Assembly: GCA_031370785.1 (NCBI GenBank)
Contig: JANMQY010000033.1
Location: forward strand, 1-14,400
Direction: 5' to 3'
DNA: 14,400 nucleotides
DNA from: Candidatus Eiseniibacteriota bacterium
GTDB lineage: Bacteria > Eisenbacteria > RBG-16-71-46
This document shows, piece by piece, positions 774 through 13,189 of this stretch. Within the stretch, counting starts at the first letter, position 1; each line of letters opens with the position of its first letter. The position numbers and the translations under genes were made by a program. The notes under the pieces were generated by a model, which was not told the DNA's origin, ran no database searches, and saw nothing but the letters and a program-made list of their open reading frames with translations.

Positions 774-1487
774 TCATCCCTTGAGCGCTGCCTGGGCGGC
801 ATCCCGTTCGGAGCGAACCGCTTCGAGCGCAGCCATGGGATCCGGGGCTTCGGACACCGCACGACCCAGCACCAGCAAGGCCGCCCCCTCCCGGACCGCC
901 TCGGACACAGTGGCGACCCGGGCCTGGTCCTGCCGGGCGCCTCCGGCCGGGCGAATTCCGGGTGTCACCGCGAAAAACGGGGCGCGCCGGACGGCCCTGA
1001 CCCCGGCCAGATCGGCCGCGGAGCATACGATGCCGAGCGCGCCGGCGCGCTCGCTCATCTCGAGGAGCCGGGCGATGGTCGCATGCAGATCGAACGGGCT
1101 CGCGAAGCCGGGCGGCAGATCGGCGGGATCGAGGCTGGTGAGCAGCGTGACCGCGACGATCCTGGTCGGCGCACCGACTCTGGCGATGGCGCGCGCGGCC
1201 GCTTCGATCATCGGTGCGCCGCCGAGCGCGTGCACGGTCAGCAGGTCGGCGCCGAGCCGCGCGGCCTCGGTCGCAGCGCCCGCCACCGTGTTCGGGATGT
1301 CGTGCAGCTTGAGGTCCAAGAACACGCGCCGCCCGCGCGCGCGAAGTCTACGCACCACCTCGGGGCCCGCCGCGGTGAAGAGCTGGAGGCCCACCTTCGC
1401 GTACTCCGGGCCCTCGCCGAGAGTGCGGTCGAGCGCGAGCGCCTGATCGAGGCCCTCGACATCGAACGCGATCGCGATTTCGCTCAA
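774..1487 (-). CDS. pyrF: Orotidine-5'-phosphate decarboxylase
   Basis: Signature FLDLKLHDIPNTV, plus AKVGLQLF, VTLLTS, TPGIRP, DQARV and LGRAV. Start re-called as TTG at 1487, overlapping the pyrD stop (TTGA) with a GGGAG SD 7 nt upstream. Confidence 0.95.
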   Translation of the reverse strand: MSEIAIAFDVEGLDQALALDRTLGEGPEYAKVGLQLFTAAGPEVVRRLRARGRRVFLDLKLHDIPNTVAGAATEAARLGADLLTVHALGGAPMIEAAARAIARVGAPTRIVAVTLLTSLDPADLPPGFASPFDLHATIARLLEMSERAGALGIVCSAADLAGVRAVRRAPFFAVTPGIRPAGGARQDQARVATVSEAVREGAALLVLGRAVSEAPDPMAALEAVRSERDAAQAALKG

Positions 1488-2509
1488 CGTCGCGCTCCCG
1501 CGCGCCGCGCCCGGGCAGGCAGCGCGCGTCGGGCCTGGGCAGGCAGCGCGCGCCGCCTGGGGCCGGGCGCTTCGGCTTCCAGCGCGTCGCGCAGGCAGCC
1601 CTGCCATTCGCCGAGGCTCTTCACTCCACGCGCACCGAGCAGCGCCTGGATCTCTTCGAGCACGAGGCTCGCGGCGCGCGGCCGGATGAACGACACGGTG
1701 CCGACCTGCACCGCGGCCGCGCCCACCGCGAGGAATTCGAGCGCATCGCGCCCGTTGAAGATGCCGCCCGAGCCGATCACGGGGATGCCGACCGCGCGCG
1801 CCGCTTCGTGACAGCGCGCGAGTGCGAGCGGCTTGATCGCGGGCCCGGAGAGCCCGCCGGTCGCGCGTCCGAGGTGCGATCCGGCGTGATCGAGGTCGAC
1901 CGCCATGCCGACGAAGGTGTTGACCGCGGTCAACGCATCGGCTCCGCCCTGCTCGCAGGCGACCGCGAGGTCCGCGATCGAGGTGACGTCGGGCGAGAGC
2001 TTGGCGATCAACGCGCCGCGGGTGAGCGGACGAAGCGTACGCAGCGTGCGTTCGAGCCGACGCGGCGTCGCCCAGAATCGCGCGCCGCCCCGCGCCACAT
2101 TCGGGCACGAGAAATTGATCTCGAAGCCACCGACTCCGCGCTCGCCTCCCAGCGCTTCGAGCAGGCGGATCAGCTCGCCCGGCGTCTCGCCGCCGATCGA
2201 GGCCACGATGGTCGCGCCCAGCGCGCGCAGCTTCGGCAGCTTCTCGGATCGGAACTTCGCGAGCCCGACGTTCTCGAGCCCGATCGAGTTGAGCATCCCG
2301 GCCGCGGTCTCGGCGATCCGCTGCGGCGGATTGCCGGCGCGCGGCTCCAAGGTCACGGTCTTGGTGATCACCGCGCCGAGCGCGGCCACGTCCAGCACGT
2401 GCGCGTACTCATCGCCATAGCCGAACGTGCCCGAGGCGGTAAGGACCGGGTTCCTGAGCACGAGCGGACCGAGTCGCACTCCGAGATCGACGACCGCCGC
2501 GCGGCTCAT
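1484..2509 (-). CDS. pyrD: Dihydroorotate dehydrogenase, family 1B catalytic subunit
   Basis: Motifs LRNPVLTASGTFG, GMLNSIGLEN, EINFSCPNV (catalytic Cys), KLSP and GGLSGPAIKP. ATG at 2509 overlaps the pyrK stop (ATGA). Confidence 0.96.
   Translation of the reverse strand: MSRAAVVDLGVRLGPLVLRNPVLTASGTFGYGDEYAHVLDVAALGAVITKTVTLEPRAGNPPQRIAETAAGMLNSIGLENVGLAKFRSEKLPKLRALGATIVASIGGETPGELIRLLEALGGERGVGGFEINFSCPNVARGGARFWATPRRLERTLRTLRPLTRGALIAKLSPDVTSIADLAVACEQGGADALTAVNTFVGMAVDLDHAGSHLGRATGGLSGPAIKPLALARCHEAARAVGIPVIGSGGIFNGRDALEFLAVGAAAVQVGTVSFIRPRAASLVLEEIQALLGARGVKSLGEWQGCLRDALEAEAPGPRRRALPAQARRALPARARRAGARR
1513..1552. repeat. Tandem duplication with 24 bp period and 16 bp identical core GGGCAGGCAGCGCGCG, in the 3' end of pyrD
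   Basis: Copies at 1513-1528 and 1537-1552, encoding RRALPA twice. Confidence 0.85.
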
Positions 2510-3468
2510 TCCACGCGCGCCCAGTCGAGGTCGTGCGCCTCGAACACCGGGCCCTCGGTGCAGCACATCGCGAACTCGTGATTGCCGTAGAGCGATGGAG
2601 TCCGGTCGCTGCGGAACGCGGCGCGCGCGGAGCTGCTTCGGGGCAGCGGGCAGCCGCGACACACGCCGGTGCCGCACGCCATCACCGATTCCATCGCGAG
2701 ATACGCGGGGACCCTGCGCGCGAGCGCCCACTCGGCCACCGCGCGGAGCATCGCGTGCGGCCCGCACGCGTGCAGCACCGGCGTTCCGTCCAGCCGGGGC
2801 GCGAGGCCCTCGAGCAACGCGAGCACGTTGCCCTTGAATCCCGCGCTGCCATCGTCGGTCGCCAGATGCAGCCGCCCGCCCACGCGAGTCAGGGTCGAGC
2901 GCGCCTCGGCCAGCGCGACCAGGTGTGCGCGGTCGCGCGCGCCGAACAGGAATTCGCAGCGCAGCGCAGCGCGACGGCGAGCCCCTCCGGCCAGAGCGTC
3001 GGCCGCAAACAGCAACGGAGCCACACCGCGCCCGCCGGCGATCAGCACCGGCACCCAGGGTTGATCGAGCGGGAAACCGCGCCCGAGTGGCCCGAGCACG
3101 TCCACCGCATCGCCCGTTTCCAGCGCGGCGAGAAGGCGCGTCCCGGCGCCGACCGGCGCGTAGACGAATTCGATCGAGAGCGCCCTGCCCAGCCGGCGCA
3201 CGCCGGCCACGCTCATCGGACGCGGCAGCAGCACCGCGGAGGGATCGGCGAGCAGCAACTGGACGAACTGGCCGGGCGTGGGCTCCACGAAGCCGGCGGG
3301 CATCGCGAGCTCGAGCCAGCGGTGCCCGGCGCCGACATCGCGGTGGCCGGCAACGCGCGCGGTCATCTGGCTCCACGCGGGTTGCGGCGCGATCACGGTG
3401 CCGCGATCGGTCTTGAAGCTCGGCCGGGCCGCCGGGCGACGCGCTCCGCTGGCCGAGGCGAGGCTCAT
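2506..3468 (-). CDS. pyrK: Dihydroorotate dehydrogenase electron transfer subunit (FAD, 2Fe-2S)
   Basis: Motifs PGQFV, LPRPMSV, GPLGRGF, AGGRGVAP, ACGPHAML and MACGTGVCRGC...CTEGPVF. Directly upstream of pyrD; ATGA overlap with the TPR gene stop. Confidence 0.94.
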   Translation of the reverse strand: MSLASASGARRPAARPSFKTDRGTVIAPQPAWSQMTARVAGHRDVGAGHRWLELAMPAGFVEPTPGQFVQLLLADPSAVLLPRPMSVAGVRRLGRALSIEFVYAPVGAGTRLLAALETGDAVDVLGPLGRGFPLDQPWVPVLIAGGRGVAPLLFAADALAGGARRRAALRCEFLFGARDRAHLVALAEARSTLTRVGGRLHLATDDGSAGFKGNVLALLEGLAPRLDGTPVLHACGPHAMLRAVAEWALARRVPAYLAMESVMACGTGVCRGCPLPRSSSARAAFRSDRTPSLYGNHEFAMCCTEGPVFEAHDLDWARVE

Positions 3469-5261
3469 GGCTTGGTCATGCTGCTGTCGCGCGCCCGAGC
3501 GCTGGTGTCGGGCGCAAAGCGCGAGCTGTCCCGCATGGCGCGCTCGCGTTCGCGCCGCAGGCTGTCGGTCAGGGCGGTCATGGCGCGGCGCACGCTGTCC
3601 GGGGATATACCGCTCATGATCATGCGCTCGCGCATGTCGATCGCCGCCTGGCGTCTGACCTCGGCCTCGGCAGCGATTCCGCCCGGCCTGGGCGCGCCCA
3701 GGCGGAGCATCGAGTCCGCGACCCCCGGCGATGTCCCGAGCCTGGGCACGGTCAGAGGCGGCGCGGTCAGGTGCACCGAGTCGGCGACCGAGGTGTCGCG
3801 CTTCACGACCGGCATCCGGATCAGATCGGCCGGCACCGAGATCCCTTCGGCCTCCAGGTAGTCGCGCGCGGCGAGCTGGGCTTCAGTCGCCGGGTATTCG
3901 CGCACCACCTTCCAGAACAGCGAGTCGGCTTCGGCCTTGCGCGAGAGCTTGCGGCTCAGCACCCACGCCTTCGCGTTGTACGCCTTGCCGGCGTACGGCG
4001 TGCCGGACCATGTACTCGCGAGCCGGGTGTACTCCTCGAGCGCGCGCTCGGGCTTGTCGAGCTGGAACAGGTACTGCTCGGCCAGCAGGAAGCCGGCTTC
4101 GGCTCTCTTCTCGAGCGAGTCGCGGCCGGTGGCGCCGCGCACCTGCGAGATGCGCTCCAGATTCACGAGCCGGCTGTTGGCCTGGAGCGTGAAGCCGCCG
4201 ATGCCGGCCTGATCCTTCACCTTCGCGTACTCGGCGCGCGCGCGCTCGAAATCGTCCCCGACCGTTTCGTAGGCATAGCCGACGCGGTACTGGGCTTCGG
4301 CGGCGAGCGGATTCTTGGGATAAGTGGCGATCACGTCCTTGTACTCGGCCAGTGCCGGTTCGAGCCGCCCGGCGAGCAGGTGCGCGGTGCCGATCCGGAT
4401 GCGCAGCCGGCCCCAGCGATCGACGCCCGGTCCGGTCGGCGCGACGCGCTGCACGTTGGCTCCGGAGCCGACCTCGACCGGGATCGGAGTCTTCTCGTGG
4501 CTCAGCGCGTCTCGCAGCAGCTGGATCTCCGCATCGTAATCGCGCGCGCCCTCCAGGCAGTCGGCCTCGCGCAGCAGGAACATGAAGCGCTCCTCGTCGT
4601 CGAGCGCGTGCTCGCCGAGGTAGCGGAAGTCCGCGCGCGCGGCGGCGAAGTCACCCTTGGCGATCAGCGCCTCGGAACGCGCCACCCGCGCCTGCTTCAC
4701 GAGCGGGCTCTTCGGGAAGCGTTCGATCAGGTTCCCGGCGGCCTGCGCGGCCTCGGTCGGACGTTCGAGCGTGGTGAGAACGCGCGAGCGCTCGAGCAGC
4801 GCATAGGGCGCGAGCTTGTGCTTCGGCGCCTGCTTGAGGAATTCGTCGAACGCGGACAGCGCCTCGGTGGGCTTGCGCGACTGGCGATAGCCGACGCCCA
4901 GATAGAAAGTCGCATCGTCCTTGAGCTGGCTCTTGGGGAAGCGCGTCGGGAAACCCACCAGCATGTTCACAGTCTGGCGCGGATCGTCCTTGCCGAGCAG
5001 TGCGCGCGCCCACAGCAGGTACGCATCGTCCACCCAGCCCGACTTGGGATACTGGGAGAGCAGCTTCTTCGAGTAGTCGATCGACCGATTGAAGTTCTGG
5101 GTGGCCGAGCCGGCATTGCGCTCGACCAGGTAGGGCTCGCCTCCGGTCGCGACGTCGTAGTTCTTCCGCGCCAGGTAGAACGTGTTGTAGTAGGCGCAGG
5201 AGCCCAGGATGAGTGCGGCCGTGAGGGCGAGTGCGCTCGCGAATGTGCGACGCACGCTCAC
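3465..5261 (-). CDS. Tetratricopeptide-repeat lipoprotein, function unknown
   Basis: Signal peptide with lipobox LILGS-C followed by AYYNTFY. Repeated TPR-like helices with YP.S/FP.S turns. GTG at 5261 overlaps the carB stop (GTGA). Confidence 0.88.
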
Positions 5262-8200
5262 AGCGTCTCCTGAAGGGTGGTGACGTCGAGCGGACCGCGC
5301 GCCAGCGCCTCGAGCCCCGAGACCGCGGCCAGCGCGCCGGCCACGGTCGTGATCACCGGGACGCCGAGCGCGATCGCGCGCTCACGGATGGCACGATCGT
5401 CATATTCCGAGCGACTGCCGAGCGGGGTATTGATCACCAGCTGGATCTCTCCGTTCTCGATCGCGTCGACCACGTGCGGGCGGCCCTCGTGCACCTTGAA
5501 CACCTGGGCGCACGGGACGCCGTTGCGACGCAGGAACTGCGCGGTGCCCTGGGTCGCCACCAGTCCATACCCCAGTTCGACCAGTTTCTTCGCCATGAAG
5601 GTGATCGAGCGCTTGTCGTCGTCGCGCACGCTCAGGAACACCCGGCCGGTGCGCGGCAGCGGCTCGCCTGAGCCCAGGTGCGCCTTGGCCAGCGCCCGGC
5701 CAAAGTCCACGTCGCGGCCCATGACCTCGCCGGTCGACTTCATCTCGGGACCGAGCAGCGCATCCTCGCCCGGGAAGCGCGCGAACGGCAGCACCGGCTT
5801 CTTGACGCTCACCATCGGCGCCTCGGGGCTCACCGCCGGGGCGATGTCGCTGAGCCGCTCGCCGGCCATCACCCGCGCGGCGAGCCGCGCCAGCGGCAGC
5901 CCGACCGCCTTGCTCACGAACGGCACGGTGCGCGAGGCGCGCGGGTTGGCTTCGAGCACGTACACCTGGCCGCCGCGGACCGCGAACTGAACGTTGATCA
6001 GGCCCCGGACTCCGAGCGCCCGCGCCAGCTGCGCCGTGATCTCGCGTACCCGGCGCAGCGTCTCCTCGCCGAGCGTGAACGGCGGGATCACGCAGGTCGA
6101 ATCTCCCGAGTGAATGCCGGCCTCTTCGATGTGTTCCATCACCGCCCCGACCAGCACGGTCTCGCCGTCGGCCACGGCATCCACGTCCACTTCGAGCGCC
6201 GCCTCGAGGAACCGGTCGATCAGCACCGGAGCCTCCTCCGAGATCAGCGCTTCGCGCGTGAGCCACTCCTCGAGCTCGGAGGCAGCGTACACCACCTTCA
6301 TGCCGCGCCCGCCGAGCACGTAGGACGGGCGCACCAGCAGCGGCCAGCCCAGATCGTGCGCCACCTGGAGCGCCTGCTCGCGCGAGGTCGCGCTGGCGCT
6401 GGCCGGCTGGAGGATGCCGAGCGAATCGAGCAGCACGCGGAAGCGCTCGCGATTCTCGGCCAGGTCGAGTCCGTTCCACGGCGTGCCCCACAGCGGGACT
6501 CCGGCATCGTGCAGCGCCTTCGCAAGCTTGAGCGGGGTCTGGCCGCCGAGCTGGACGATCACGCCGACCGGCTTCTCACGCTCGATCACGTTGAGCACGT
6601 CCTCGACGGTGAGCGGCTCGAAGTAGAGCCGGGTCGAGACGTCGTAGTCGGTGCTCACCGTCTCGGGATTGGAGTTGATGATCAGCACGTCGTAGCCGCG
6701 CTCCTTCAGCTCGAGCGAGGCCTGCACGCAGCAGTAGTCGAACTCGAGCCCCTGCCCGATGCGGTTCGGCCCGCTGCCGATGATCACCACCCGCGGGCGC
6801 GTCGACTCGGGAACCTCGTCTTCGTCCTCATACGTCGAGTAAAAATACGGCGTCAGCGCCTCGAACTCGGCGCCGCAGGTGTCGACCGCCTTCATCGCGG
6901 GAACGATCTGGTGCGCGAGGCGGCGGCGGCGCACATCCATCTCGCTCAAGCCCAGCCGGTGCGCGAGATGGCGATCCGACAGCCCGAGCCGCTTGGCGGC
7001 CCGGATCAGACCCTCGCGCCACGGCGCCTCGGGATCGCGCGCCACGCGCTCGGCCAGCTCGCGATCGCAGTCCACGATGCGCTGGATCTGGTTCAGGAAC
7101 CAGGGATCGATTCCGGTCAGGCGCGACAGCTCGGCCGGCTCTTCCCCGGCCGCGAGCGCGCGATACAGATCGCGCAGGCGCTCCGAGCTCGGTTCGCGCA
7201 AGGAACGCCGCAGGTCTTCCAGCTCCTGGAAGCTGGCGCGCTCGGGCAGCGTGTCGGCGCCGCTTTCGAGCGCGCGCCAGCCCTTGAGCAGCGCCTCGGG
7301 GAAGGTGCGTCCGATCGCCATCACTTCGCCCACCGACTTCATGCGCGTGCCGAGTTGCGGATCGGCGTCGCGGAACTTCTCGAACGCCCAGCGCGGAATC
7401 TTGACCACGCAGTAGTCGAGCGTGGGTTCGAAACACGCCGGGGTCTTGCGCGTGATGTCGTTGGGGATCTCCTCGAGCGTGAGCCCGGCCGCGAGCAGCG
7501 CGGAAATCTTCGCGATCGGGAACCCGGTCGCCTTGCTCGCGAGCGCCGAGGAGCGCGAGACTCGAGGATTCATCTCGATGATGCGCATCTCGCCGGTATC
7601 CGGATGCACCGCGAACTGGATGTTGGAGCCGCCCGCCTCGACCTTGATCGTGCGCATCACGAGCAGCGCGGCGTCGCGCATGCGCTGGTAGCAGCGGTCG
7701 CTCAGGGTCTGGGCTGGCGCGCAGGTGATGCTGTCGCCGGTGTGGACGCCCATCGGGTCGAAGTTCTCGATCGAGCACACCACCACGCAGTTGTCCGCGC
7801 GGTCGCGCATCACCTCGAGCTCGAACTCCTTCCAGCCGAGCAGGCACTCCTCGATCAGGATCGAGCCGTTGGGACTGGCCGCGATCCCGAGCCTCGAGGC
7901 CTCGCGCAGCTGGCGCATGTTGTGCACCAGCCCCGAGCCCGCGCCGCCGAGCGTGAACGAGGAGCGGATCACGAGCGGATAGCCGAGCGCCTCGCCCAGG
8001 CCCACCGCCTCGGCCACGCTGGTCGCGTAGCCGCTGCGCGGCAGCTGGAGTCCGGCCCCCTCCATCGCCCGCTTGAACCGGGCGCGGTCCTCGGCGGTCT
8101 CGATCGCCTCGAGCGAGGCCCCGATCAGCTCGACGCCGTGGCGTTCGAGCGCGCCCGAGTGGGCGAGCGAGACCGCCAGGTTGAGGGCGGTCTGGCCGCC

Positions 8201-8470
8201 GAGGGTGGGCAGCAAGGCGTCCGGCTTCTCGCGCTCGAAGATGCGCTCGACGATCTCGGGGAGCAGCGGCTCGACGTAGGTGCGATCCGCGAACTCCGGG
8301 TCGGTCATGATCGTCGCCGGATTGGAATTGAGGAGCACGACCTCGATCCCGAGCGAGCGCAGCGCGCGGCAACCCTGGGTGCCCGAGTAGTCGAACTCGC
8401 ACGCCTGCCCGATCACGATCGGGCCCGCGCCGAGGATCATCACCTTCTTGAGATCGGGACGGACCGGCAT
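5258..8470 (-). CDS. carB: Carbamoyl-phosphate synthase large subunit
   Basis: 1070 aa. Motifs [60 protein letters not shown] and [13 protein letters not shown]-terminal MGS-like domain; AAGGAG SD. Confidence 0.99.
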
Positions 8471-8514
8471 CAGCGCGCTCCTTCGGCCGGCGGCATCGAG
8501 GGCGCGGCGCTCAT
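8470..8514 (-). other. Candidate 14-codon bridging mini-ORF ([14 protein letters not shown]) between carA and carB
   Basis: Its ATG overlaps the carA stop (ATGA, 8514-8511) and its TGA overlaps the carB ATG (TGATG, 8472-8468). Confidence 0.4.
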
Positions 8515-9686
8515 CGTGCGGCCGCCTTCACAGGCCTGGCGGCCGGCTTCGCGACGGATCGATCGCGCGTCTTCGCCACGCGCTCGGCGAACGCCCGGAA
8601 CCAGGGGCGCGAGTCGTGCGGGCCGGGACTCGCCTCGGGATGGTACTGGCACGAGAGGATCGGAAGCTTGCGATGCACCATGCCCTCGAGCGTCCGGTCG
8701 TTGGCGCTGAAGTGGGTCAGCTCGAACTCGCCGCCGGGAAGGGTCGCGTCGTCCACCGCAAAGCCGTGATTCTGCGAGGTCACCTCGACCGCGCCGGTGC
8801 GCCGGTCGATCACGGGGTGGTTCGCGCCGCGGTGCCCGAACTTGAGCTTGAAGGTGCGCGCACCGAACGCGAGGCCGAGCAGCTGGTGGCCGAGGCAGAT
8901 GCCGAGCGTCGGCACACGCTGCGCGAGCGCGCGCGAGGTCTCGATCGCGAAGTCGAGCGGCTCGGGGTCCCCGGGGCCGTTCGAGAGCACCACGCCCGCC
9001 GGCTCGAGCGCCAGCACGTCGCGGGCGCTGGTGCGCGCCGGCACGACCCGGACGCGAAAGCCCTCGGCGTGCAGCCGGCGCAGGATGTTGTACTTGACGC
9101 CGAAGTCCATGACGACCGCGAGCGGACGCTCGGCCTCGGTCGCCGGCAGCGCCTCGCCCGGGCCGCGCTCGGTCCACCAGTAGGGCTCGACGCAGGTCAC
9201 GATGTCAGCGAGCGCGAGCCCGACCATGCTCGGGCTGCGGCGCGCCTTGTCGATCAGCGAATCCGGGTTCAGATCCACCGCCGAGACGCAGCCGCGCATC
9301 GCGCCGCGCTCGCGCAGGTGGCGGGTGAGCGCGCGGGTGTCGATGCCGGCGATGCCGGGGACGCCCTGCGACTCGAGCAGCTCCTGCAGCCGCCCGGTCG
9401 AACGCCAGTTGCTCGGGAACTCGCACACTTCGCGGCACACCATGGCCTGCGCGCGCAGCGAAGCGCTCTCCCAGTCCTCGTCGTTGACGCCGTAGTTGCC
9501 CATCAGGGTGTAGGTGAAGGTGACGATCTGCCCGCAGTACGAGGGATCGCTCAGCACCTCCTGATAGCCGGTCATCGCGGTGTTGAACACCACCTCGCCG
9601 GTGGTCTCGGCGCGCGCGCCAAAGCTCTCGCCGTGAAACACCCGGCCGTCTTCGAGCGCGAGTAGCGCGGGTGGTCGCCGGCTCAC
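8511..9686 (-). CDS. carA: Carbamoyl-phosphate synthase small (glutaminase) subunit
   Basis: Motifs [37 protein letters not shown] (catalytic Cys) and [12 protein letters not shown]. Start re-called as GTG at 9686, overlapping the pyrC stop (GTGA). Confidence 0.98.
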
Positions 9687-10987
9687 CGTAGCGCCTCGAG
9701 CAATTCGGGCGAAGCGCCGGCGACCGTCATCGATGGGTCGAGATGGGTCAGCGCTCCCGCGCACACCGTCGCGCAGACGCGACCTTCCAGCTTCCACCCG
9801 GCGAAGGGCGTGTTGCGCCCCATCGAGTGGAAGGCGTCCGGGTTCACGGTCCACGGCGCGGACGGATCGAACAGCACGAGATCGGCGGGGAAGCCGGGCT
9901 CGAGCCGCACTTTGGGAAGCGCAAAGGCGCGCCGCGGCGCATCGGTCCACAGCTCGATCGCGCGCGCGAGCGAAAGATGGCCCGGCTTGACGAGGAAGGT
10001 GAGGGTGAGCGCGAACGCGGTTTCGAGGCCGACGATGCCGAACGGGGCCTGGTCGAACGGCTGGCGCTTGTCCTCGGCCGTATGCGGTGCATGGTCGGTG
10101 GTCAGGCAGTCGATGGTGCCGTCCGCGATCGCGGCGATGGTCGCGTCGCGATCCGCGGCCGAGCGCAGCGGCGGATTCATCTTGGCGTGCGTGTCGTAGT
10201 CGGCAACCGCTTCGTCGGTGAGCGTCCAGTAGTGCGGGCAGGTTTCCCCGGTGACCGGCAGGCCGCGCCGCTTCGCGTCGCGCAGCGCCTCGAACGACTC
10301 GGCGCACGAGAGGTGCGCGAAGTGCACGCGGCCTCCGGTCAGCGCGGCGAGCTCGACGTCGCGCCGCGCCATCACGCTCTCGGCGGCCGAGGGAATGCCG
10401 CGCAGCCCGAGCCGGGTGGAGGTGAAGCCCTCGTGCATCACGCCCTCCCCGCGCAGGGAGAGATCCTCCTCGTGGCACACGATGGGCAGACCGGCGTGCG
10501 TCGCGTACTCGAGCGCGTGGCGCATGGTGCCGGCCGACAACACAGGGCGGCCGTCGTCCGAGAGCGCGACCGCGCCGGCCTTGCGCAGCGCCAGCGCCGG
10601 CGCCAGCGTCTCGCCCTTCTGTCCGAGCGTCACCGCTCCGATCGGGTGCACGCGGCAACGGCCTTCCGCCCGCGCGCGGTTCACCACCCATTCGATCCAC
10701 GCCGCGCTGTCGAGCACGGGCTCGGTGTTGGGCATGCAGGCGACCGCGGTGAATCCGCCCGCGGCGGCCGCGCGCGTGCCGGTGCGGATGGTCTCGCGCG
10801 CGGACTGGCCCGGCTCGCGCAGGTGCACGTGCAGGTCGACGAGCCCGGGCGCGAGCACCGCGCCCTCAGCATCGAGTGTCGCGGCTCCGGCCGGCGCGCG
10901 AGCGACGATCGTGCCATCCGCGACCGCCAGGTCGAGGGGCTCGCCGGTCTGCCAGTGACGGGCGTTGCGGATGATGAGCGCGCTCAC
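9683..10987 (-). CDS. pyrC: Dihydroorotase (long, type I form)
   Basis: Metal ligands DLHVHLREPG, plus AAAGGFTAVACMPNT, KMNPPLR, TDHAPH and GIVGLET. GTG at 10987 overlaps the pyrB stop (GTGA). Confidence 0.97.
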   Translation of the reverse strand: MSALIIRNARHWQTGEPLDLAVADGTIVARAPAGAATLDAEGAVLAPGLVDLHVHLREPGQSARETIRTGTRAAAAGGFTAVACMPNTEPVLDSAAWIEWVVNRARAEGRCRVHPIGAVTLGQKGETLAPALALRKAGAVALSDDGRPVLSAGTMRHALEYATHAGLPIVCHEEDLSLRGEGVMHEGFTSTRLGLRGIPSAAESVMARRDVELAALTGGRVHFAHLSCAESFEALRDAKRRGLPVTGETCPHYWTLTDEAVADYDTHAKMNPPLRSAADRDATIAAIADGTIDCLTTDHAPHTAEDKRQPFDQAPFGIVGLETAFALTLTFLVKPGHLSLARAIELWTDAPRRAFALPKVRLEPGFPADLVLFDPSAPWTVNPDAFHSMGRNTPFAGWKLEGRVCATVCAGALTHLDPSMTVAGASPELLEALR

Positions 10988-11988
10988 GCCGCGGCCCTCG
11001 CATCGCCGGTCACGCACCACGCCAGCACCGCGCACCGCACCGGCAGGCCGTTGGCGGTCTGGCGGAAGATCACGGAGCGGCCGCCGTCCGCCACGTCCGA
11101 AGCGATCTCGACTTCACGGTTCATGGGGCCGGGGTGCATCACCACCGCCTCCGGCTTCATCAGGCGCACGCGCTCGGCGCTGATCCCCCACGTGCTCGCG
11201 TATTCGCCGAGCGAGGCGAGCAGGCCGCGCTCCATGCGCTCGCGCTGCAGACGCAGCGCCATGACCGCGTCCGCTCCGCTCATCGCGTCCTCGACCGTGG
11301 GCGCGGCCGTGCAGCCCAGCGCCTCGACGTCGGCGGGCATCAGCGTGGCGGGGCCGCAGACCGTGACCTCGGCGCCGAGCGCGGTCAGCCCGGCGATCGC
11401 CGAGCGCGCGACGCGCGAATGCGCGATGTCACCGACGATCGCGAGGCGCCGGCCTTCGAAGCGGTCCTGCCACGAATCGCGGAGCGTCATCAGGTCGAGC
11501 AGACCCTGGGTCGGATGCTCGTGCTCGCCGTCGCCTGCGTTCACGATCGAGGCGTCGAGGTGCGAGGCGAGATAGGCGGGGACCCCGGCCGAGCGGTGGC
11601 GCACCACCATGACCTCGACCGCCATGGATTCGAGCACGCGCAGCGTGTCGAGCAGGGTCTCGCCCTTTGAGGCCGAGGTGCCACTCGTGCCGAAGCTCAC
11701 GTGCATGGCGCCGAGCCGCTGCTCGGCCAGCTCGAAGGAGCAGCGCGTCCGTGTCGAGTCCTCGAAGAACGCGTTGCACACCGCGACCCCGGCCAGCGCG
11801 TTGGATTTCCACCGTCCCGCGTCGAGGCGGTCGCGATACAGGCGCGCGGCGTCGAGCAGGTCGAGCACGGCGTCACGGGTGAGACCCTCGAGTCCCAGTA
11901 GATGTCGACGACCTCCGGAGGCGGTGGAGGGATAAAAAAACCCCGCGCCGGCCGGGGCCGGGCAGGGCGAAGCAGTGGCACGGTCCAT
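10984..11988 (-). CDS. pyrB: Aspartate carbamoyltransferase catalytic subunit
   Basis: Motifs FFEDSTRTRCSFE, KGETLLDT, NAGDGEHEHPTQGLLD, GDIAHSRVARS, RLQRER and HPGPMNR. ATG 11988 (SD AAGGGGG) is the nearest in-frame ATG/GTG/TTG upstream of the typical N-terminal RHLL motif. The start position is less certain than the gene call. Confidence 0.96.
   Translation of the reverse strand: MDRATASPCPAPAGAGFFYPSTASGGRRHLLGLEGLTRDAVLDLLDAARLYRDRLDAGRWKSNALAGVAVCNAFFEDSTRTRCSFELAEQRLGAMHVSFGTSGTSASKGETLLDTLRVLESMAVEVMVVRHRSAGVPAYLASHLDASIVNAGDGEHEHPTQGLLDLMTLRDSWQDRFEGRRLAIVGDIAHSRVARSAIAGLTALGAEVTVCGPATLMPADVEALGCTAAPTVEDAMSGADAVMALRLQRERMERGLLASLGEYASTWGISAERVRLMKPEAVVMHPGPMNREVEIASDVADGGRSVIFRQTANGLPVRCAVLAWCVTGDARAAA
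11934..11959 (-). terminator. Intrinsic terminator/attenuator hairpin inside the 5' end of pyrB
   Basis: Minus strand reads GGCCCCG-GCCGGCG-CGGGG-TTTTTTT: a GC stem followed by seven T residues, the longest A/T homopolymer I saw in the window. Confidence 0.8.
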
Positions 11989-11991
11989 CGG

Positions 11992-12032
11992 ATCCCCCTT
12001 TTGCCGCCTCTCGGGGCGGCCCTTTAAAGGAT
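11992..12032 (-). promoter_or_regulatory. PyrR-binding-type RNA stem-loop
   Basis: Transcript AUCCUUUAAAGGGCCGCC-CCGAGA-GGCGGCAAAAGGGGGAU has a CUUUAA motif, an upper stem GCCGCC/GGCGGC, a CNGNGA hexaloop followed by GG, and a lower stem CCUUU/AAAGG. This matches the known Bacillus-type PyrR binding loop architecture and sits at the head of a pyr operon. Confidence 0.85.
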
Positions 12033-12058
12033 GGCGCTGACTGCTCGAATCGGGCGCA

Positions 12059-12087
12059 ACTGTAGCGGACGCGATTCGGCGAATCAA
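12059..12087 (-). promoter_or_regulatory. sigma70-type promoter of the pyr operon
   Basis: TTGATT (12087-12082), 17 nt spacer, TACAGT (12064-12059). Predicted start near 12052, about 20 nt before the PyrR loop. Confidence 0.75.
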
Positions 12088-12215
12088 GCGCGGCGTGCGG
12101 CGGCTTCCAGGTCCGGTGCGACGGCCCCCACGAGCCGACGGATAGTCGCCTCTGACACGGACGCCATGCTCTCGACATTCGTACGAACGCGCTCCCGCTG
12201 GCGCCTCGCGGCGTG

Positions 12216-12221: not shown

Positions 12222-12265
12222 TTCGCTTCCCTTTGTCCATGCCGGGCCTGCTCAGGAGGTCGTCC

Positions 12266-13189
12266 ATGCCGCATCGCCGCCCCGCCCGAACATGCATTAC
12301 AGGCGCCCTCGTGCTCACCGCACTGCTCACGCTCGTGTCCGCCGCCGGCGCTGTGCCCACACTTGGTTTCCGCGAGGAATGGAGCGGCGGCGTCGGCAAC
12401 ACCGACGGCTGGGGCGGCGGCTCCTTTTACGGCAACCCCGGGGGCGGCGGGGTCGGCGGCGACGGCGATGGATTTCTGGCGATCACCACCGCGGTGGCGG
12501 CCAAGTTCGGAGGCTTCGCGGCCAATGCCGAATACACGGGCGACTGGCAGGCAGCCGGCATCACGCAGATCCGGCTGTGGCTGAACGACGTGATCGCCGA
12601 CGAGCCGATCGAGTTGCACGTTTCGGTGGGCAACGGCACGAACATGTGGCAGTACAACGTGGGGTTCAATCCGCCGAACGGCCAGTGGGCCGAATACGTG
12701 GTGGATCTCACCAATCCCGCGAACTTCACGCAGATCGTCGGCGTGGGCACTTTCGACGCCGCGTTGCAGGGCGCCGATCGCATTCTCATCCGCCACGACC
12801 TTGCGCCGTTCGCGATGGTGCCGGACAACGTGAAGGGCGATGTCGGCATCGATCACCTGCTGCTCACCAACGGCACGGTCGGGGTGGAACGGGGCGGCGC
12901 GGCGATCGCGCGGGCTCCGGCGCTGTCCAGCCCCTCGCCCAACCCGTCGCGCGGCGACGTGCAGTTCTCGATCGAGACCTTCGAATCGGGCGCGATCGCC
13001 CTCGACGTGCTGGACATCGCCGGCCGCCGCGTGCGCCACGCGGTGGTCGCCGCGGCCGGCCCGGGCCACAGCACGTGGGTCTGGGACGGCCGCGACGATG
13101 CCGGCCGCCTGACCGCGCCGGGCGCGTACCGAGTGCGTGCGAGCGGACGATCGGGCGGAGTCACGCGAGCGCTGGTGCGGGTGCGGTAG
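12266..13189 (+). CDS. Secreted protein with C-terminal FlgD Ig-like / T9SS type A-like sorting domain
   Basis: Strong SD AGGAGGT 5 nt before ATG 12266. Signal peptide ending AAGA. C-terminus PNPSRG...LDIAGRRVR...WDGRDDAGR..APGAYRVR is typical of FlgD_ig-type C-terminal domains. The N-terminal Gly/Trp-rich domain is unassigned. Confidence 0.88.
   Translation: MPHRRPARTCITGALVLTALLTLVSAAGAVPTLGFREEWSGGVGNTDGWGGGSFYGNPGGGGVGGDGDGFLAITTAVAAKFGGFAANAEYTGDWQAAGITQIRLWLNDVIADEPIELHVSVGNGTNMWQYNVGFNPPNGQWAEYVVDLTNPANFTQIVGVGTFDAALQGADRILIRHDLAPFAMVPDNVKGDVGIDHLLLTNGTVGVERGGAAIARAPALSSPSPNPSRGDVQFSIETFESGAIALDVLDIAGRRVRHAVVAAAGPGHSTWVWDGRDDAGRLTAPGAYRVRASGRSGGVTRALVRVR

Follow-up and report, generated by a model that had tools for sequence, protein, structure and literature searches.

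Analysis of a 14,400-nt stretch of DNA from a Candidatus Eiseniibacteriota bacterium (the window; all leader features lie on its minus strand) suggests that pyrB is controlled by a PyrR-gated, translation-coupled attenuator, in which the first codons of pyrB itself would take the place of a leader peptide. Based on the sequence comparisons described below, we assign this reading a probability of roughly 0.7. Its observed basis comprises the layout of the leader, the conservation of this layout among relatives, a frame running through the terminator into the enzyme, the presence of pyrR in the genome and the rarity of a competing antiterminator pairing. PyrR binding, termination, ribosome control and ligand dependence would, as we infer, be combined in the following way. 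At high levels of uridine nucleotides, PyrR would bind its loop and keep the lower stem closed, and initiation would be blocked because the Shine-Dalgarno (SD) sequence sits, hidden, in that stem. With no ribosome loaded, the hairpin would fold and RNA polymerase would halt on reaching the U-tract (near 11934), leaving a transcript of about 120 nt. At low levels of pyrimidines, PyrR would be released and a ribosome would initiate at 11988; after a few codons it would cover the 5' arm of the hairpin, so that transcription would continue through the operon, while the same ribosome would be making aspartate carbamoyltransferase (ATCase) with a floppy 27-residue tag. Both halves of this scheme have precedents: PyrR with UMP or UTP stabilizes the loop in B. 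subtilis (PMC7430163), and ribosomes suppress the pyrL terminator in E. coli (PMC5021804).

Organization of the pyrB leader and operon

The element order proposed from the letters alone was recovered in full, as the promoter, a PyrR-type loop, ATG at 11988, a hairpin with U7 and, from 11907, the ATCase core follow each other on the minus strand at the expected places. The sigma70-type promoter consists of a -35 hexamer TTGATT (12082..12087) and a -10 hexamer TACAGT (12059..12064) separated by a 17-nt spacer, and transcription would start near 12052-12050. With 8 of 12 consensus matches, this promoter falls under the cut-off of the scanner and is therefore without an entry in its output. Among the host-family loci with enough flank, the pattern TTG-N19-21-TANNNT precedes the loop by no more than 75 nt at 72 of 74 (vs. 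0/74 in a pyrB-body control). Three metatranscriptome runs from one study, available as assembled contigs that carry no strand, level or end information, include a contig of depth 3.6 over 11918-12103; a flat 12.7-kb contig from the same study crosses genes of both strands. No weight is given to these contigs.

The pyrB gene itself (10984..11988, minus strand, 334 aa, ATCase core from 11907) matches NF002032 with 359 bits (cut-off 263). It is followed on the same strand by pyrC, carA, carB, a TPR lipoprotein gene, pyrK, pyrD and pyrF (774..10987, approximate boundaries), with pyrC and carA identified via NCBIfam and the remainder by reading translations. The TPR-like lipoprotein gene is located between carB and pyrK at window positions 3465-5261 (minus strand), and the divergent gene at positions 12233-13189 (plus strand) encodes a secreted protein whose C-terminus weakly matches FlgD-like proteins.

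The predicted PyrR-type binding loop (11993..12033, minus strand) displays all parts of the PyrR-loop architecture: a lower stem CCUUU/AAGGG, a purine-rich bulge, an upper stem (12020-12015 with 12008-12003) and a GAGAGG terminal loop. In nascent RNA folded from 12052, the pairing probability of the upper stem is 0.99, and across 27 genera this stem is 96% paired with both-sided changes at four of six pairs. An Rfam search, as suggested by the sequence-only reading, gave a divided answer: the PyrR model (RF00515) spans both loop and terminator (12034-11933) and this match is the sole one genome-wide (E 0.006), but its 35 bits (E 0.11 in the window) fall under the gathering score of 54. The same model also matches in T. 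thermophilus, and only 2 of 14 controls reach the gathering cut-off. Relative to the full B. subtilis consensus ARUCCAGAGAGGYU (PMC7430163), the loop core agrees and three upper-stem positions differ yet stay paired; Thermus-like loops likewise deviate at those positions. The CUUUAA + GNGAG signature is found at 75 of the 76 host-family loci. A loose loop pattern has 89 matches in this genome and hence is no test alone, so that loops were accepted via their position and signature.

As had been claimed, the 3' strand of the lower stem doubles as the SD of pyrB (11993..12002, minus strand), with its G-run (11998-11994) ending 5 nt ahead of the ATG and a predicted unpaired probability of about 0.3. 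This succession of loop 3' strand as SD and then start codon is of the Thermus type, and it recurs at 76/76 host-family loci, a count partly inherent in the loop search pattern.

The predicted terminator is a G-C rich hairpin of 12 bp (11941..11968, minus strand, codons 7-16, -23.4 kcal/mol, one-base bulge) directly abutting a U7 tract (11934..11940), which is read as two Phe codons and would contain the RNA 3' end. Both had been anticipated at 11959-11934; the best hairpin proved longer, starting at 11968. Its 5' arm begins 20 nt beyond the A of the ATG, and the U-tract 48 nt beyond the start. The leader frame fused to pyrB (11908..11988, minus strand) amounts to a 27-codon extension rather than the approximately 26 residues estimated earlier, with the RHLL motif beginning at 11907. 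Residues 1-27 lie outside the NCBIfam and PDB ATCase alignments, both of which start at residue 28, and AlphaFold assigns pLDDT < 50 to residues 1-15 and 17-25. Inspection of this genome bore out the claim that no in-frame ATG, GTG or TTG is present between U-tract and RHLL. A frameshift at the U-tract was also considered; it is unnecessary, since the frame is continuous, and the tracts are interrupted in many relatives.

The gene for the putative regulator is found outside the window, on contig G000:C62 (255 bits vs. cut-off 138). Its product can be aligned end to end with solved PyrR proteins, the top PDB match being 1ufr, which we take to be the Thermus thermophilus protein, and the closest named relative is a Candidatus Eisenbacteria record (85% identity). 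The end of C62 shares 141 identical bases with the end of the window contig, which puts pyrR outside the operon, on the same strand and about 8 kb upstream. No loop was seen in the 390 nt upstream of pyrR. Overall, pyrR is present in 73 of 86 host-family genomes searched. One genome of this set (G020, a single contig, 94% complete) has pyrR, and the pyrB query used finds nothing in it at E 1e-60.

Conservation of frame and terminator in the host family

A pyrB match was obtained in 82 of 89 host-family genomes, and after dropping six of them (contig ends or late match start) the analyzed set included 76 loci from 27 genera. Taking as the start the first ATG at least 5 nt past the AGG core of the loop (GTG/TTG if no ATG), we found it in frame with pyrB and stop-free at 75 of 76 loci and in 26 of 27 genera, which upholds the conservation of ATG and frame expected by the sequence-only reading. 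This rule was fixed after seeing the data: a first pass, in which codons inside the SD were chosen, gave 70/76, and a second-pass rule accepting the first of ATG/GTG/TTG gave 65/76, with ten of its failures tracing to a single genus in which a GTG in another frame precedes the in-frame ATG by 5 nt. The extensions come in 24 different lengths from 66 to 201 nt, every one divisible by 3, with variation within eight genera. At the 75 loci, the extension contains no stops in frame 0, as compared with 20/75 in frame +2 and 62/75 in frame +1, although the latter is no fair control because its stops come largely from the ATGA at the start. All these conservation figures are to be read as counts, not tests, since kin are not independent.

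At the sole exception (L040, from genome G004), a leader of 57 codons forms a frame of its own between pyrR and pyrB, and its stop overlaps the pyrB ATG (ATGA); this locus possibly represents an intermediate state. In a pyrB tree of 56 loci, the 34 labeled fused forms fall in one clade and G004 outside of it; with a support of only 0.41, and with L025 labeled among the 34 despite having no visible loop, this tree establishes neither a single origin nor the order of events.

The hairpin and U-tract are similarly widespread, in agreement with what had been predicted for relatives. The median hairpin energy in the host family is -18.0 kcal/mol vs. -11.8 kcal/mol for pyrB-body controls, and hairpins of -14 kcal/mol or better are present at 72/75 loci vs. 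81/225 controls. At least six T in 8 nt are found at 63 of 75 loci and at most five at the remaining 12, L023 being the single locus without a U-tract. Throughout the family, the distance of hairpin and U-tract from the start is held at 43-63 nt. Terminator covariation is modest (84% of cells paired, both-sided changes at two of nine pairs) and the register varies among genera. In the tract, Phe is encoded by TTT 70 times and by TTC 5 times, vs. 8 and 325 times, respectively, across the first 100 core codons. This bias, along with the disordered extension and the translation of the hairpin in other frames in sister families, supports the suggestion that selection here would act on the RNA rather than on the peptide.

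The 3.44-Mb genome contains 96 runs of at least six T, only 14 of which come with a hairpin that reaches -15 kcal/mol; together with the element order kept in the host family, this indicates that the site exceeds chance. Since intrinsic terminators are rare and Rho is encoded, termination in this genome is probably mostly Rho-dependent. A search of the genome for a second terminator in an N-terminal coding region reduced 84 sites with at least five T to six candidates, none of them convincing. Near position 9664 of contig G000:C45 (plus strand), a hairpin with T6 is located just 5' of a gene resembling asparaginyl-tRNA synthetase. This gene is equipped with an SD and ATG of its own; in addition, the frame from an ATG further upstream, preceded by a weak SD, runs through the hairpin in phase with the gene, making this site a possible second case of a terminator inside a frame.

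PyrR leaders in other lineages and described systems

Comparison of leaders across lineages, with antiterminator pairing scored as a loop-3'-strand/terminator-5'-arm pairing of 0.4 or more, revealed two contrasting groups. Such pairing is common in Bacillota (55/68 leaders, representing 43 of 61 loci) and in family f11 of the same class as the host family (9/10), where a frame translated over the terminator is found in 15/68 and 0/10 leaders, respectively. Conversely, the frame extends over the terminator in 74 of 75 host-family leaders, 10/10 from Deinococcota, 7/8 from Omnitrophota and 7/7 from family f3, with antiterminator pairing in 5/75, 0/10, 0/8 and 0/7. The observation that translated-frame leaders mostly lack the antiterminator pairing, and vice versa, supports ribosome-gated termination. 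Nevertheless, the either-or contrast depends on the measure: a stricter count (at least seven Watson-Crick pairs: Bacillota 8/68, f11 8/10, host family 0/75) separates f11 but not Bacillota from the host family. This genome is one of the five host-family members with antiterminator-like pairing (0.46, RNA folded from the loop onwards); upon folding from the predicted 5' end, the pairing is gone and the loop is folded (at least 0.99) at all lengths tested.

In the sister families f3 and f2, the same element is located ahead of pyrR rather than pyrB. All seven f3 leaders are separate frames of 25-58 codons that end on or beside the pyrR start. In all three f2 loci (L059-L061), leader and pyrR form one fused frame of 206 aa. 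Another SD and start are present past the terminator, so that two forms of PyrR may be made. The ten f11 leaders (L044, L222, L224, L225, L228, L231, L234, L239, L241, L245) have loop and terminator, no start at SD distance and, in some of them, no clear SD before pyrR. Among Deinococcota, the loop is found at 10 of 30 pyrR loci, all ten with a start and a frame reaching the terminator (five with a 28-codon leader); the Thermus-like label that we use for these loci rests in part on the PyrR N-terminus. The other 20 of the 30 Deinococcota pyrR-pyrB loci (L192-L221), mostly from larger genomes, have no pattern-matched loop within 330 nt upstream of pyrR.

The closest described arrangement is that of the pyrR-pyrB-bbc-pyrC operon of Thermus strain ZO5, for which Van de Casteele et al. 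in 1997 (J Bacteriol 179:3470) reportedly proposed a PyrR loop on the SD combined with a ribosome translating a leader peptide through the terminator. To our knowledge, this proposal has never been directly tested; our plasmid search yielded no Thermus record. The pyrB leader shares with the ZO5 type the PyrR loop on the SD, translation across an intrinsic terminator, the lack of an antiterminator and a spacing similar to that in Thermus-like Deinococcota loci. The difference is in the frame, which in ZO5 is a separate short peptide before an autoregulated pyrR, whereas here it forms the N-terminus of ATCase; moreover, pyrR is located upstream and has no loop. For Mycobacterium smegmatis, Fields and Switzer are said to have described in 2007 translational repression by PyrR. 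There, too, the PyrR loop coincides in part with the site at which ribosomes bind a genuine gene, but no terminator is involved, in contrast to the conserved hairpin and U-tract inside the gene observed here. In E. coli pyrL-pyrBI, sensing relies on pausing that depends on UTP, and the leader peptide is separate, whereas here a protein would gate initiation and no separate peptide exists. What the two would share is a ribosome preventing an intrinsic terminator, located ahead of pyrB in E. coli (PMC5021804) and within pyrB here. The B. subtilis attenuators (PMC7430163 and PMC4347634) share the PyrR family, the loop signature, the order of loop, hairpin and U-tract and a pyrimidine operon; the pyrB leader differs in having no conserved antiterminator, a translated terminator region, a G-C rich upper stem and one site instead of three. 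Thus, with the antiterminator absent in 70/75 host-family leaders and the region translated, it is not of the Bacillus type, and with no separate peptide, it is not strictly of the Thermus type either.

The sequence-only reading went too far in regarding the whole combination as novel, as the hybrid had been proposed for Thermus ZO5 and the layout is present in Thermus-like genomes. The only new part is the fusion of leader and enzyme, which appears undescribed. In the literature searched, which leaves out most subscription journals, no enzyme gene was seen to be described as harboring an intrinsic terminator gated by PyrR, and the available portions of PMC6524683, PMC3766115, PMC4347634 and bioRxiv 2026.10.21.760802 contain nothing on the fused form. 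The supplements of PMC3766115 list PyrR sites and may bear on distribution. Premature transcript ends inside ORFs as such are known in E. coli (PMC7815308).

Alternative explanations and biological meaning

The main objection to translation-coupled attenuation is timing, since a terminator only 48 nt beyond the start may be difficult for a ribosome to suppress. In E. coli, terminators within the first 100 nt of ORFs are about 100% efficient (Li et al. 2015, as summarized in the review PMC7858274); the same review describes RNA polymerase as prone to pausing in the early stretch of ORFs. The proposed mechanism would require either a polymerase pause or a leaky terminator, and one of these must belong to the design, because the Thermus-like leaders share the same geometry. 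This objection would lose its force if PyrR were a translational repressor only, as in mycobacteria. Hairpin and U-tract would then act independently of the ribosome, as a pause, a processing site or a constitutive but leaky terminator, and any polarity would come from Rho. We view this possibility as unlikely. It would accommodate the weak U-tracts of some members, the presence of Rho and the rarity of intrinsic terminators in this genome, and cases in which Rho terminates transcription within ORFs after repression are known (PMC7815308); but it leaves unexplained why the hairpin and U-tract are held at their distance from the start with such a strong TTT bias, and why translation through the hairpin is kept even where the frame is a separate leader making no enzyme.

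The other explanations are less probable still. An ordinary Bacillus-type switch, with the loop 3' strand and the terminator 5' arm forming an antiterminator and hairpin translation being incidental, could draw on the pairing of 0.46 in this genome and on the use of such a layout by f11; given the lack of this pairing in most of the host family (and of any with at least seven Watson-Crick pairs) and the persistence of the folded loop once the predicted 5' end is included, we consider it very unlikely. Hardly any weight can be given to a pyrB start past the U-tract, at CTG 11898 or GTG 11868, which would leave the terminator in an untranslated or separately translated leader. Two of 11 members of the public cluster of the pyrB product are indeed annotated from the GTG (294 aa), and GGAGG is present at 11916-11912; however, it is 13 nt from the CTG, seven of the 11 members have 334 aa (six that were fetched all start at Met 11988), and either start would remove residues that align with solved ATCases. 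In-frame ATG/GTG/TTG codons between U-tract and RHLL are absent at 56 of 76 host-family loci, any table-11 start with an SD is found in this stretch at only 7/75, and the 24 frame-keeping lengths would be unexplained, so that the downstream start named by the sequence-only reading as its refutation did not materialize. An equally slim chance is left for sensing of UTP without PyrR as in E. coli pyrBI, the loop being a relic or a pause hairpin and polymerase speed alone setting the coupling: the geometry of a translated terminator resembles pyrL and pyrR is outside the operon, yet the loop signature is maintained with covariation, no U-rich pause run precedes the hairpin in the coding stretch, and pyrR is kept in the host family. 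UTP sensing at the U-tract may, however, add to PyrR control.

Overall, the mechanism put forward in the sequence-only reading, which we infer in its PyrR-gated, translation-coupled form, fits the frame conservation, the lack of a downstream start, the apparent selection on the U-tract, the pyrR gene and the general absence of an antiterminator, with the subthreshold Rfam score as the point that did not come out in its favor. We lean slightly towards a still broader picture, in which the first 16-20 codons of ATCase would contain a working attenuator throughout the family, with one initiation event deciding on both enzyme and operon. In this picture, a Thermus-type leader would have been fused twice independently (to pyrB here and to pyrR in f2), three PyrR mechanisms (antiterminator, separate leader and fused leader) would coexist in one class, and function at only 48 nt from the start codon would depend on a built-in polymerase pause, which, being possibly UTP-sensitive, would provide a second pyrimidine sensor.

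The 120-nt element offers a compact reporter for whether a ribosome catches RNA polymerase less than 50 nt from the start codon, and the either-or pattern across phyla represents comparative support for the Thermus proposal. If the proposed mechanism is true, a regulated intrinsic terminator can reside within the very codons of an essential enzyme, out of sight of gene finding and of intergenic regulon scans, and odd N-terminal extensions can be RNA switches.
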